From the NCBI GenBank assembly GCA_963666835.2, contig CAXXGO010000006.1, positions 256,001-320,000 of the forward strand: a stretch of 64,000 nucleotides of DNA, in the 5' to 3' direction. Of this stretch, positions 1,741 through 64,000 are shown one piece after another (the first letter of the stretch is position 1; each line of letters starts with the position of its first letter). Source of the stretch: Phycisphaerae bacterium. GTDB lineage: Bacteria; Planctomycetota; Phycisphaerae; UBA1845. The notes beneath the pieces are model-generated. The model was not told the DNA's origin. It made no database searches and saw only the letters and a program-made list of their open reading frames with translations. The translations under genes were made by a program, and so were the position numbers.

Positions 1741-3168
<1,428 letters not shown>

Positions 3169-3335: not shown

Positions 3336-3363
3336 GTAGAGCACGGTCGAGGCACGAGACCTG
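3336..3363 (+). repeat. GTAG-REP (family A) left part, serving as the 5' exon of the intron
   Basis: GTAGAGCACGGTCGAGGCACGAGACCTG. The remainder CCGCAACGGCGCG resumes at 4034-4046. Confidence 0.85.
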
Positions 3364-4033
3364 GAAAGCGCCGGGATAAACCGGCATGGAGTAGCGGATG
3401 AAAGAGCCGTACAGGAAAGGGTTAGCGTCCCATCCTGACCCCGAGTCATGCGCCGGGGGTCGCAAGGCCCCGGGCGAAGCGTTGACAGGGGCACAGGTGG
3501 GCCCGGCTATTGAGCTCCGAAAACGTGTACGTCTGCCGTGCCGACCCAGTCAGGTCACGGGGAAGGCCACATGAGCGGTGACGATAAGCGCGAGCCGTCG
3601 CTTGACGCCACGGAGTCGAAGACCCTGGGCACGCTTGGAAGCTCTATGCGCGAGAACCGGGAGGCCCCGAAGACTCCCTCGGCGGATAGCACCGGGGAAC
3701 GGTCGGAGAAGGGGGTTTGCCGAACGTCCGGCATGTACGTCTACGGGGAGTCGGACGATCTCATAGTACCAACGAAGCTGGCGAACAAAGCTGGGTAACC
3801 GGTGGCGGAGTCGGTGGAGGGAAGGGGATCGACCAAGGGCAACACCTTGCAGACTGCTGCGGGCCGGGCACAGCACCGGAAGCCCGGGCTCAGAACCGGG
3901 AAGCCCGCATCGATCGGGCTGGATGGTGTACGATCGACTGATCGTTATGACCCGAGGTAGGAGCCGTATGAGGTAATTCTTCACGTACGGATCTGTGCGG
4001 GGGGTGGCCCGAAAGGGCCATTCCTAGTGCGAC
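3364..4033 (+). mobile_element. ORF-less group II intron RNA (IIB / class E-like scaffold)
   Basis: Domain V GAGCCGTATGAGGTAATTCTTCACGTACGGATCT (3961-3994, AGC triad), domain VI hairpin with GAAA loop ending ...GCGAC, DIII-like GGGGAGTCGGACGATCTCATAGTACC...GGAGGGAAGGGG, and DI motifs GACCCCGAGTCATGCG, GAAGCGTTGACAGGGG, ATTGAGCTCCGAAA. EBS1 CAGGTC (3551-3556) is complementary to exon GACCTG (3358-3363). No RT ORF in DIV. Confidence 0.93.
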
Positions 4034-4083
4034 CCGCAACGGCGCGTGGCGCAGCGCTTTGTAGTGAGTTGTGTTCCACAGCG

Positions 4084-4653
4084 CTAAAGCGATGGGCCAC
4101 CCGGCGTCCGCGGGACGCAGAACAGCCCTAAAGCCACGACCAGAAGCCCTACGGACATGCACATGACAACCGGACGGGTCTCGCGATCGCAGAAGACGCG
4201 GTCGTAATCGTAGGCCGGCAGATGACTCGCAAAATTGGTGACCAGCGGCGGCGGAGCCGCCGGTTGGGGTATAAACGGCTCCGCAGAGTGCTCATCGAAG
4301 GCTACTAATGAAACCGGGGCGTAATCGGCGGCGGCAGCCACGCGGACCGTGCGATCGCCGATCCGGCGGAATCGCAGATCGCGTTGGGCCAAGCGGTCGA
4401 TGACGGCCGGGTCGGTCCGCATCGCCTCCAACTGCCGCCGCTCCCGGTCCACCGCTCGCTGCACTTGTTGCAACCGATGTTCCTCCGCCTGACGGGCCAG
4501 GTCGAGCGTCTGATAGGCCCGCCATTCCGGGAGGATCACGCACGGGGTAAACGTACCGAAGGCCAGCAGCACAAGAAGCCAGAAGACAACCGTCCCCCCG
4601 TGACGAGGCGGATGGTGCGCCGGCGGCGGTGACCCGAAGTTCGCCTCAGTCAT
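4084..4653 (-). CDS. Septum-formation-initiator (FtsB/DivIC)-like membrane protein with an extra C-terminal TM helix
   Basis: TM helix, then coiled coil, then DPAVIDRLAQRDLRF (resembles DivIC 'D...IE..AR..L'). Starts 3 nt after the eno stop. Confidence 0.6.
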   Translation of the reverse strand: MTEANFGSPPPAHHPPRHGGTVVFWLLVLLAFGTFTPCVILPEWRAYQTLDLARQAEEHRLQQVQRAVDRERRQLEAMRTDPAVIDRLAQRDLRFRRIGDRTVRVAAAADYAPVSLVAFDEHSAEPFIPQPAAPPPLVTNFASHLPAYDYDRVFCDRETRPVVMCMSVGLLVVALGLFCVPRTPGGPSL

Positions 4654-24935: not shown

Positions 24936-25265
24936 CGGCAAAGGGCATCGAGGTTCGGATCGGACACCGGTGATTCAACATCATAAGGGAACCACGTTGG
25001 CGACCGCCGGGAGCTCTTCGATCATCGAAGTGCCGCCCTTGGGTTGACGTGCGACGCGATCCCGCGGCTTACGCCGCGGGCTGGACAGAGCTGTCGCCCT
25101 GACGGGCTGGTCCCGCACGCCACGCAGGTGGCACATATACGGCACTGTCGACCACGGGCAAGCTGCGCGCGTGCATGCTGGAAGCGCGGGCTGTGCGGCG
25201 GAATGCACATGAGCTGCGCTCATGCCACTCTCGATGGCAGGTCTCGTGCCTCGACCGTGCCCTAC
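24936..25265 (-). repeat. Dispersed composite palindromic element, copy 1 (REP-A headed)
   Basis: Reverse complement aligns with 28487-28870, 41745-42128 and 48299-48543 (AGCCCGTCAGGGCGACAGCTCTG...CCCGCGGCGT.AGCCGCGGG...TATGATGTTGAATCACCGG). Confidence 0.85.
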
Positions 25266-25484
25266 GAGGTCTTCGCGGGACGCGCGCCCGCATGGCGGGT
25301 CTCGCACCTCGAACGTCTACGGGGGGATGGTACGTGGGTGGCATGGGCCAACTTGTTGGCCCGTGGAGCGTGGTGCGGCGCAGGCGTCCACGAGCAAGCT
25401 GGAACAGTGCATCAGCGTAACGCGAGATCGAGTGACGAACCGTACTTCGCTACACAAACCGGCTATGCTTGCCACCCGCCGCGG

Positions 25485-26049
25485 GTCTCGTTCCTCGACC
25501 GTGCCCTACAGCCGCCGATGCTGCCCTACAAGGAGGCCGTCGTAATCAGCCTCGGTGGCAGGTCTCGTTCCTCGACCGTGCCCTACACCCGCCGATGCCG
25601 CCCTACAAGGAGGCCGCCGTAATCAGCCTCGGTGGCAGGTCTCGTTCCTCGACCGTGCCCTACACCCGCCGATGATGCCCTACAAGGAGGCCGTCGTAAT
25701 CAGCCTCGGTGGCAGGTCTCGTTCCTCGACCGTGCCCTACAGCCGCCGATGCTGCCCTACAAGGAGGCCGTCGTAATCAGCCTCAGTGGCAGGTCTCGTT
25801 CCTCGACCGTGCCCTACAGCCGCCGATGCTGCCCTACAAGGAGGCCGTCGTAATCAGCCTCGGTGGCAGGTCTCGTTCCTCGACCGTGCCCTACACCCGC
25901 CGATGCTGCCCTACAAGGAGGCCGTCGTAATCAGCCTCGGTGGCAGGTCTCGTTCCTCGACCGTGCCCTACACCCGCCGATGCCGCCCTACAAGGAGGCC
26001 GTCGTAATCAGCCTCGATGGCAGGTCTCGTTCCTCGACCGTGCCCTACA
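25485..26049. repeat. 77-bp tandem array (7 full units + partial, 8 REP-A cores)
   Basis: GTCTCGTTCCTCGACCGTGCCCTAC starts at 25485, 25562, 25639, 25716, 25793, 25870, 25947 and 26024. Linkers are nearly identical. Confidence 0.97.
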
Positions 26050-28892: not shown

Positions 28893-29704
28893 GCAGGGAT
28901 GCCTGCGCTACGCGAAAAGCAAAGGCAGGTCTCGTGCCTCGACCGTGCCCTACCCCTGGCACCGCGGCTCCGCCCACGCCGAGGGCGTACTCGGACGGGA
29001 CGCAGTCCGCACATCACAGAGAGGACTCTCTCATCTCGTCTGCCAAGGCTAGTACCATTGGGCTGAGCCCGACCTACCGCACTGCAGGGATGCCTGCGCT
29101 ACGCGAAAAGCAAAGGCAGGTCTCGTGCCTCGACCGTGCCCTACCCCTGACACCGCGGCTCCGCCCACGCCGAGGGCGTACTCGGACGGGACGCAGTCCG
29201 CACATCACAGAGAGGGCTCGCTCATCTCGTCTGCCAAGGCTAGTACCATTGGGCTGAGCCCGACCTACCGCACTGCAGGGATGCCTGCGCTACGCGAAAA
29301 GCAAAGGCAGGTCTCGTGCCTCGACCGTGCCCTACCCCTGACACCGCGGCTCCGCCCACGCCGAGGGCGTACTCGGACGGGACGCAGTCCGCACATCACA
29401 GAGAGGGCTCGCTCATCTCGTCTGCCAAGGCTAGTACCATTGGGCTGAGCCCGACCTACCGCACTGCAGGGATGCCTGCGCTACGCGAAAAGCAAAGGCA
29501 GGTCTCGTGCCTCGACCGTGCCCTACCTCTGACACCGCGGCTCCGCCCACGCCGAAGGCGTATTCGGGCGGGACGCAGTCCGCACATCAGAGAGGACTCT
29601 CTCGTCTCGCCTGCCAAGGTTAGTACCATTAGGCAAAGCCGGACCTACCGTACTCTCTCGTTTCGTCTGCCAAGGTTGGTGCCATTGAGCAGAGCCCGAC
29701 CTAC
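28893..29704. repeat. 191-bp tandem array (4 units + partial), each unit carrying REP-A and REP-B
   Basis: GCAGGGATGCCTGCGCTACG starts at 28893, 29084, 29275 and 29466. The fourth unit is diverged at its end. Confidence 0.97.
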
Positions 29705-48298: not shown

Positions 48299-48954
48299 GT
48301 AGGGCACGGTCGAGGTACGAGACCTGCCAGCAAGGCCGCAATGGCCCGGGTCGCACGACGATGTGCCACCCGCGCGGCTCGCGGGATCAGCCCGTCAGGG
48401 CGACAGCTCTGCCCAGCCCGTGGCGTGAGCCGCGGGATCGAGTCGCACATCGGTCCCAGCCCCCAGGGCGGCACTTCGATGCTCGAAGGGGTCCCGCTAG
48501 TCGCCAACGTGCTTTCCGTATGATGTCGAATCACCGGTGTCCGCCGGGTGGCCCGGTCCTCTTGGGCTTGGCGTGTGTTTCGGTCTATGGAGGGTTGTCG
48601 GAGTGGAACACACCGGACCCGGGGGAGCCCATGATCCGCCGCGTTCTCACGGCCGCCGCGGTATTGGCATCACCCGTGCAGGTCTTCGCGAGCTGCGCGC
48701 CGTTGCGGCAGGTCTCGTACCTCGACCTGCCCTACAGCGTGGTTCGCTGCGCTCCACCCGTGGCCACATGCCCACGTTCCTAAGGGAATGCGTATCGACC
48801 AAGGGCGAGTCGCTTACGCTCGCCGTACTGAGTACGACGCCCTGCTTATAGACCAGCGTCGGCGGGTGTAGGGCACCATCGAGGCCTGAGACCTGCCATC
48901 AACGCGCGCGTCGCGCAGACGTTGCGGCAGGTCTCGTACCTCGACCTGCCCTAC
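48299..48954. repeat. Composite element copy 4 plus REP-A copies, including an inverted doublet
   Basis: 48299-48543 composite; REP-A at 48696-48735(-), 48868-48897(+) and 48926-48954(-). Confidence 0.85.
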
Positions 48955-63966: not shown

Positions 63967-64000
63967 GAAAGCGCCGGTAAGCCGGTGAGGAGTAGTGGAT
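63967..64000 (+). mobile_element. Probable 5' end of a second group II intron (cut by the window edge)
   Basis: GAAAGCG-CCGG-taag-CCGG-tga-GGAGTAGTGGAT versus intron 1 GAAAGCG-CCGG-gataaa-CCGG-cat-GGAGTAGCGGAT. Confidence 0.75.

Follow-up and report, generated by a model that had tools for sequence, protein, structure and literature searches.

The window, a 64,000-nt stretch of a Phycisphaerae bacterium genome (G000; contig C6, positions 256001-320000), carries at 3364-4033 on the plus strand a 670-nt group II intron without an open reading frame (ORF). It is of class E (IIB-like, endonuclease-less) and is inserted in a repetitive extragenic palindrome (REP), here called REP-A. The intron probably retrohomed to REP-A, lost its reverse transcriptase (RT) gene by way of subdomain IVb (DIVb) and is now likely stranded, its unusual start, GAAAGCG, apparently having been tolerated. 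The genome is a 6.0-Mb assembly, 92% complete. Contigs of the public runs X1 and X2 are identical there (0 letter differences across the intron locus), so that an assembly error can be set aside, with the caveat that the source sample may be one of these runs.

Intron anatomy

A first-pass annotation of the window had proposed a group II intron with exactly these boundaries, and they were right. The covariance-model search that it suggested gave 172.4 bits for RF02005 (group-II-D1D4-6; gathering score 49) on 3401-3625. RF00029 (domains V and VI, D5-D6) scored 31.8 bits (E 0.00036) on 3959-4033, under its gathering score of 40, as it also did for a sibling intron in the same genome (36.9) and for a 140-nt mini copy (32.3), both described below. 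The D5-D6 fold has a z-score of -4.7. Domain V had been called intact and indeed has the AGC triad and the AC bulge, together with a 5-nt loop, a trait of classes E and F according to PMC3753933. There is no target duplication, and the boundaries are unable to slide, because the last bases of the exon (G) and of the intron (C) differ, as do the first bases of the intron (G) and of the 3' exon (C). The 3' end, AC, agrees with the AY rule and the 5' end departs from GUGYG. This start is no bar to group II membership, because PMC4424553 counts changed 5' ends among the exceptions that the family allows. The features of the intron and its exons, with the exon- and intron-binding sites (EBS and IBS), are as follows.

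3336-3363, plus: 5' exon, the 5' part of REP-A (GTAG tag, bulged 5' arm, loop and most of the 3' arm), with IBS2 at 3352-3356 and IBS1 at 3358-3363; from the REP consensus of 805 anchored matches
3364-4033, plus: ORF-less class E group II intron, 670 nt; from Rfam, parent comparison and RT tree
3364-3370, plus: non-canonical 5' end GAAAGCG, with G1 retained and two added bases ahead of GCG, the counterpart of GUGCG positions 3-5; from empty sites and the EBS1 register in relatives
3401-3625, plus: domain I core; from RF02005, 172.4 bits
3524-3528, plus: EBS2 (CGUGU), partner G[C/T]ACG at -12 to -8; best of the scanned registers, and covariation
3550-3556, plus: delta (U3550) and EBS1 (CAGGUC, 3551-3556); from sequence position and the EBS1 register in relatives
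3618, plus: EBS3 (G3618), partner C4034; from the position's pairing with the first 3' exon base in 35/38 introns
3733-3934, plus: what is left of the RT ORF N-terminus, interrupted by a stop at 3796-3798 and bounded by the deletion junction 3934/3935; from the ORF list and parent comparison
3930-3945, plus: DIVb hairpin closing a 1,274-nt ORF deletion, 6-bp stem and 4-nt loop; from parent comparison
3961-3993, plus: domain V, intact, with AGC triad, AC bulge and 5-nt loop UAAUU; from the RF00029 match and fold
3995-4033, plus: domain VI, with branch A4026 (at -8), then GT (4027-4028) in place of CC, and the intron 3' end AC; from the fold and 45 parsed introns
4034-4046, plus: 3' exon, CC (the final two REP stem bases) and the common REP tail, IBS3 being C4034; from empty REP copies

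EBS1 pairs at 6/6 positions, in agreement with the earlier assignment of CAGGTC (3551-3556), EBS2 at four Watson-Crick and one wobble position of five, and EBS3 as G-C. The EBS2 had been offered as a candidate (CGTGT, 3524-3528). It covaries with IBS2 in relatives, this register being the best of those scanned and equalled in 0/500 shuffles (18 non-redundant introns with a seven-base start), a statistic that ignores kinship. Among the 38 introns in which the EBS3 position was compared, the 35 pairs consist of 33 Watson-Crick and 2 U-G. As claimed before, there is no RT ORF: no ORF of at least 150 aa was found on the plus strand within the intron, and the RT N-terminal remnant persists. Domain IV (DIV) had been described as collapsed to about 100 nt. 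It is indeed reduced by deletion, and by reading of the sequence it measures about 120 nt (about 3837-3955).

Two other kinds of group II intron can be set aside. Class C (IIC) introns are, according to PMC4424553, intergenic and hairpin-linked like the window intron, but the same text describes them as lacking EBS2 and inserting behind a hairpin, whereas the window intron possesses EBS2, its EBS1 is 6 nt long, and its cut falls within the stem at a distance of two bases from the stem base; these three traits rule out class C membership. Class F is not supported either, the tested F reference being 33% identical and outside the clade of the RT tree described below. Class E introns (Cl.be.I2, PMC3753933; those of plasmids NZ_CP014510 and NZ_CP016613, PMC8919778) share with the lineage an IIB-like scaffold, EBS1-3, a 5-nt D5 loop, the missing endonuclease and a length of ~670 nt without the ORF. 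They differ in that the two plasmid introns start with GTGCG and the lineage with GAAAGCG, and the window copy lacks an ORF and has dispersed intergenic repeats as its targets.

The target repeat REP-A

The 10-base REP anchor at the 5' exon end occurs 805 times in the genome (a few of these being chance matches outside the repeat) and is followed by CC 781 times. The REP-A consensus has a GTAG tag, an 8-bp stem, often with a 1-base bulge, and a 9-nt loop, and copies are also arranged as dimers and tandem runs. Midpoints of REP-A fall in crude ORFs of at least 150 aa in 180/682 cases, as against 80% genome coverage by such ORFs. By its tag, stem-loop, high copy number and mostly extragenic position, REP-A fits the GTAG REPs, which PMC3733652 describes as short imperfect stem-loops with a GTAG tag, present in hundreds of mostly extragenic copies, in dimers and in tandem clusters. 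It differs from them in that no REP-A lies within 1.5 kb of any Y1_Tnp locus in G000 (0/9), and a cognate RAYT was not recognised by this measure. According to PMC3733652, REPtrons can be missing for GTAG REPs.

The cut point lies in the REP 3' arm, two bases from the stem base, with IBS1 inside the stem. IBS1 and IBS3 alone have 2,520 matches in the genome; adding IBS2 leaves 521, of which 501 are REP-A. Some empty REP-A copies elsewhere in the genome match the intron-less site at 40/41 bases, more closely than an empty copy in the window that had been called almost identical to it.

48696-48735, minus: empty REP-A copy (perfect-stem variant); from sequence comparison

Its 3' side bears this out (13/13), while its 5' side has one indel and two substitutions. 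Tandem REP-A arrays were also seen on the minus strand of the window at 25238-26021 and 28926-29499, with periods of 77 nt and 191 nt, and many more occur genome-wide.

The lineage has five insertions in G000, and all (5/5) lie at the identical REP position, as the first-pass annotation had expected, one of them in a degenerate REP. The window copy alone has a complete scaffold; the four further relics have the same 5' junction. The relic at C6:234347-234486 is a 140-nt mini intron (61 nt from the start and 79 nt from the end of the lineage's sequence) placed precisely in a REP-A dimer, and its joint is also present in contigs of runs X1 and X2. The others are 5' stubs of 93 nt (C1:352856), 28 nt (C6:1508537, in the degenerate REP) and about 20 nt (C7:29181). 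A preference for bulged REPs or for C/T at -11, on which the four canonical insertions agree, was dropped, n=4 being too few. Of 17 insertions in G000, 16 have a precise 5' junction (one stub has A at +1). Precise 5' junctions point to complete reverse splicing of a lariat, although hydrolysis is the only way in which class E introns splice in vitro when protein is absent (PMC3753933).

A fixed position in a multicopy REP is otherwise known from IS1397, IS621, ISPpu9/10, ISPa11 and ISRm22 (PMC1525189), but these use DNA transposases, whereas the intron uses RNA base pairing. REPs are known as targets of DNA transposases; here retroelements get to them through RNA-DNA pairing.

A recently mobile sibling in REP-B

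The window ends within a second intron of the genome.

63967-64000, plus: 5' end of the RT-encoding sibling intron in REP-B, start GAAAGCG

This class E intron is 1,927 nt long and is present in 12 copies on contigs C1, C6 and C7, all in the repeat REP-B (52 sites by search pattern). The 11 copies of equal length differ by at most 3 bases and the 12 have 12 distinct flanks; the copy at C1:23317 has one additional base, and its open frame is shorter. EBS1 pairs 6/6, and the GAAAGCG junction is precise at every copy. The sibling has spread recently. The two introns in G000 divide two repeat families, the lineage using REP-A and the sibling REP-B.

All filled sites (11/11) on C1 and C6 are on the plus strand, as against 14/38 empty sites (Fisher p 0.0002). 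This strand is the G-rich strand overall; against local GC skew the same bias gives p 0.07-0.5, and some of the sites counted as empty are termini of the same element. According to PMC8914252, fork-dependent homing is expected for endonuclease-less introns, and a lagging-strand bias of sibling insertion is suggestive only.

The genome has 14 RVT_1 matches, namely the 12 sibling copies, an intron RT at a greater distance and an RT unrelated to these. A third intron family with the canonical GTGCG start has one RT-encoding copy and two 5' fragments (C6:1065k, C7:26.4k and C6:567k). An RVT_1 match at C6:1809235-1809837 lies inside a 958-aa frame, is 29% identical to the intron RT and belongs to another kind of RT.

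Repeat targeting across relatives

A 28-nt motif of the 5' end is present in 12/279 genomes of the order, where the 5' exons are mostly short repeats. Target counts against a reversed control were 44/2 in G025, 23/3 in G132, 17/0 in G181, 14/3 in G048, 10/2 in G174, 6/0 in G279, 4/0 in G102 and 4/1 in G023. The parent-type intron of G014 differs in its EBS1 and occupies a different palindromic repeat, of which G014 has 13 copies against 0 for a reversed control, and the next relative, in G176, has a third EBS1 (target 7 vs 0 for the control; a further G176 count gave 2/0). REP targeting is not confined to the ORF-less form, because the G014 parent type and the 12-copy sibling also home into repeats. 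Two target motifs of relatives flank Y1 transposase genes in G000; at three loci there (L024, L026 and L028) such genes have flanking inverted repeats of the GGGAC or GGGTC type, motifs targeted by related introns elsewhere.

It is quite possible, though we would not bet on it, that there is no specialisation on REPs at all: EBS sequences would drift, variants matching abundant and harmless intergenic repeats would survive, and REPs would be a sink rather than a recognised structure. The position of IBS1 within the stem argues for plain pairing over hairpin recognition, as the hairpin would compete with EBS1. Relatives hit unrelated repeats (GTAG REPs in either orientation, GGGAC/GGGTC inverted repeats, 7-base tandem repeats), and some targets are barely repeated (2 in G176; 4 vs 1 control in G023). 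On the other hand, repeat targets recur in most genomes tested (e.g. those of G014, G025 and G181). The motif GGGWC/GGTGWC can be read in both directions: it is present in only 9/18 long-start targets, but in 4/29 targets of introns with the canonical five-base start. Such a sink is compatible with the anatomy, and REP-A as a neutral landing pad for insertions is plausible.

The GAAAGCG start

Both the window intron and the sibling start with GAAAGCG, which puts the intron start two bases ahead of the GUGYG register. Among relatives, 98 sequences gathered by family likeness were examined, near-duplicates included; 75 were parsed and 67 had an EBS1 score of at least 5. The 67 starts are GTGCG (35), GAAAGCG (20), GAGCG (6), GATGCG (3), GACAGCG (2) and GTGTG (1). 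For the 22 introns with a seven-base start, mean EBS1 pairing reaches 5.8/6 in the long register, as against 1.5 in the canonical register. Empty REP-B sites have the five-G form followed by AC 19 and 8 times, and the four-G form 0 times. These sites fix the junction of the sibling, and the empty REP-A sites together with the EBS1 register set the 5' start of the window intron at G3364.

A true start two bases later (AAGCG), with GA as exon or untemplated addition, is highly improbable. Five-base GAGCG starts do exist in 6/67 relatives and the 5' end is known from sequence alone, but GA is missing from the empty REP-A and REP-B sites (781/805 anchors go on with CC), and the EBS1 register of the 22 introns points the same way. 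EBS1 keeps the splice site at G1, and the two extra bases presumably loop out of the stretch from G1 to the GCG anchor. In the D1-D3 alignment, not one column sets all 22 long-start introns apart from the 42 five-base ones, so that a compensating change was not found there; D1-D3 differences between start types follow the main clade.

A single origin of GAAAGCG is rejected by the approximately unbiased test (p 0.00045; 9 rows vs 20, quick RT tree). The GAAAGCG introns are not one clade on the RT tree, where at least 3 changes are forced, and the D1-D3 tree likewise separates both the sibling and a second G014 intron from the main group. In both G000 and G014 (L059), an intron of a separate RT subclade shares GAAAGCG with a co-resident main-clade intron, by convergence or by exchange of terminal bases.

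Splice sites set by EBS1 upstream of GUGYG are also found in C.te.I1 (PMC4024640) and in fungal mitochondrial rRNA introns (Li et al. 2011, via PMC4024640 and PMC4424553). C.te.I1-type introns, however, have no RT, EBS2 or branch A and are not retromobile, whereas RT-encoding members of the present lineage keep all of these, are shifted by 2 nt and have the GU altered; because they keep EBS2, branch A and RT, membership of the C.te.I1 type is ruled out. As every intron with a shifted 5' site known to them had lost retromobility, McNeil and Zimmerly (PMC4024640) suggested that IBS1 adjacent to GUGYG is perhaps needed for mobility. Contrary to this suggestion, two extra bases appear to be tolerated without loss of mobility, because the recently mobile sibling starts with GAAAGCG. 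A 12-copy RT intron with a start 2 nt longer, together with relatives with five-, six- and seven-base starts, makes the proposed need testable with natural variants. Literature searches listed no report of REP-homing group II introns or of a GAAAGCG start; Simon et al. 2008, Figure S1 of PMC4028801 or the Zimmerly database might show this start. Pipelines based on the RT or on GUGYG boundaries would miss or mis-trim such elements.

Origin by deletion of the RT gene

The parent-type intron of G014 is 1,923 nt long, encodes an intact RT and is 90% identical to the window copy over 649 aligned bases. The window copy corresponds to this type minus 1,274 nt, cut inside the DIVb stem. The deletion leaves the N-terminal remnant and the last codons of the ORF and closes as the 6-bp hairpin at 3930-3945. 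On a quick RT tree, the two plasmid class E references nest in the clade of the 90%-identical G014 intron's RT with 99% SH-aLRT support, and single D, F and g1 references fall outside it on long branches; class E is represented there by the introns of NZ_CP014510 and NZ_CP016613 only, Ge.ur.I1, Pe.th.I2 and So.us.I2 being left out. RVT_1 is the only Pfam match of both the parent-type RT (476 aa) and the sibling RT (501 aa), the latter also passing TIGR04416, and both are predicted to be RT/maturases without an endonuclease domain.

Similar shortening is seen in seven genomes, with eight ORF-less copies of 667-788 nt whose deletions end in the same DIV region and most of which fold back into a hairpin. 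The relatives with such forms are G023, G044, G028, G102, G132 and G174. One short intron, L056, has a deletion that differs from the others, and the ORF-deletion scars of L147 (G174) and L143 (G132) are long near-perfect hairpins, tidier than expected of random deletion. In G174, G102, G023 and G044, the query used turned up no complete RT nearer than 46% (assemblies 87-93% complete).

According to PMC2882425, TeI3 of Thermosynechococcus elongatus likewise has a DIVb ORF deletion with remnants of both ends, EBS divergence to new targets and mobilisation in trans by a related RT. TeI3 is described there as having a single origin, 17 copies, very close driver RTs, and insertion sequences and intron ORFs as targets; by comparison, the present lineage has repeated deletions in different genomes, 1-2 copies, a distant resident RT and REP-type targets. 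The window copy has the TeI3-like DIVb deletion, apart from its D6 change, and the same deletion in several copies is seen in G132 (2) and not in G000 (1).

The likely sequence of events can be outlined as follows. EBS1, EBS2 and EBS3 would have recognised the 3' arm of the GTAG REP that is most abundant in this genome, and insertion would have followed by full reverse splicing and reverse transcription (retrohoming), likewise at the four other REPs. The RT gene was presumably excised from the DIVb loop, after which a closed hairpin and the upstream portion of DIV remained. Most likely the folded RNA holds the ORF ends together, so that the loop is skipped in cDNA synthesis or replication. The ORF-less form would have been mobilisable while a cognate RT was present. 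With the cognate parent since gone from the assembly and the branch helix since changed, a stranded relic would result.

Stranded copy or trans-mobilised element

The first-pass annotation regarded the window copy as a non-autonomous element that homes into a dispersed REP by EBS-IBS pairing and is mobilised in trans. The homing stands. The trans-mobilisation of this copy is unsupported, in view of its being the sole copy, its altered branch helix and the distance of the RT: the anticipated RT-encoding sibling does exist in 12 copies, but its RT is only 58% identical to the parent type, and its D1 is 70% identical. Because the cognate RT parent is missing from the assembly and the branch helix is changed, the window copy is most likely a stranded relic that is presently inactive. 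The bases after its branch A are GT, while C follows A in 43/45 parsed introns (the parsing pattern itself required branch A). This D6 change was found in the window copy only among the 45, and the 140-nt sister relic keeps CC. The window D6 refolds with branch A opposite G, whereas the sister relic's A sits in a bulge. In another genome, domain VI of L051 (G032:C265) has a group II-like sequence starting GTGCGCC inserted directly after branch A, and the window's GT could be the scar of a similar nested insertion.

Several points weigh against the likely history outlined above. The altered D6 is stable (-26 kcal/mol). As PMC3753933 reports hydrolytic self-splicing of class E introns in vitro, splicing may survive the branch damage. 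In an assembly 92% complete, a cognate RT copy could be unassembled, and the order of deletion and insertion is unreadable from one copy. Selection of the relatives by likeness to the window intron also favours similar deletion ends and the GAAAGCG start.

That the window copy is an active retroelement, spliced and mobilised in trans by the RT of the 12-copy sibling, is unlikely. Its DIVb deletion is clean, with D1-D3 and D5 intact, and the resident RT is of class E, recently mobile and tied to the same GAAAGCG start. Driver RTs of relaxed specificity are known in T. elongatus (PMC2882425). In G132, one 670-nt ORF-less form occurs twice, each time between other flanks (96.6% identity), next to an RT intron only 67% identical to it in RNA. 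Because this form occupies two sites, the lineage reads as capable of movement in trans; with the contamination of G132 rated at 8%, however, the two copies may be from two strains, which counts against this capacity. Against mobilisation of the window copy stand its single copy beside about 500 matching empty sites, no second ORF-less copy of the full scaffold being found in G000, and the distance of the sibling together with the altered branch region. The 20-nt deletion junction had 0 exact matches in metagenome contigs, and the REP-A/intron junction was found in G000 only among 401 genomes of the class (0/400 others); no intron start at REP-A was among the matches listed from 119 metagenome stretches. 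The spliced joint of 3363 to 4034 was not found in contigs of four runs of unstated type, which is no evidence either way, and public RNA runs hold only 6-10% of the words.

A wider generalisation is speculative and somewhat doubtful. Class E lineages would repeatedly have lengthened their start to GAAAGCG yet retrohome as lariats, and would shed ~670-nt RT-less forms that resemble short interspersed elements, chase REP- and Y1-transposase-associated repeats through changes in EBS1-3 and rely on the RT of a distant class E intron in the same genome. The window copy, itself probably a relic, would be one of these.

Neighbouring genes

The intron site is intergenic, between convergent genes and beyond a terminator-like hairpin, with the element lying 65 bases past the latter.

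1741-3168, plus: ahcY (adenosylhomocysteinase), upstream gene; TIGR00936, 632 bits
3244-3271, no strand assigned: terminator-like hairpin between ahcY and the REP; scored on both strands
4084-4653, minus: convergent 189-aa ORF downstream of enolase, without a Pfam match

A regulatory RNA kept by the host where ahcY or the convergent enolase operon ends hardly comes into consideration. The window copy is the sole complete scaffold of the five relics, which speaks for such a role, but it lies outside genes and past the hairpin, 0 of 60 relatives searched have the intron at this locus, and the branch helix has substitutions. The 189-aa ORF has a hydrophobic N-terminal stretch and a coiled-coil-like part, and its placement behind enolase is, we presume, reminiscent of eno-ftsB. 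Immediately 5' of ahcY, at 729-1679 on the plus strand, lies a methyltransferase fused to an ArsR-type regulator.
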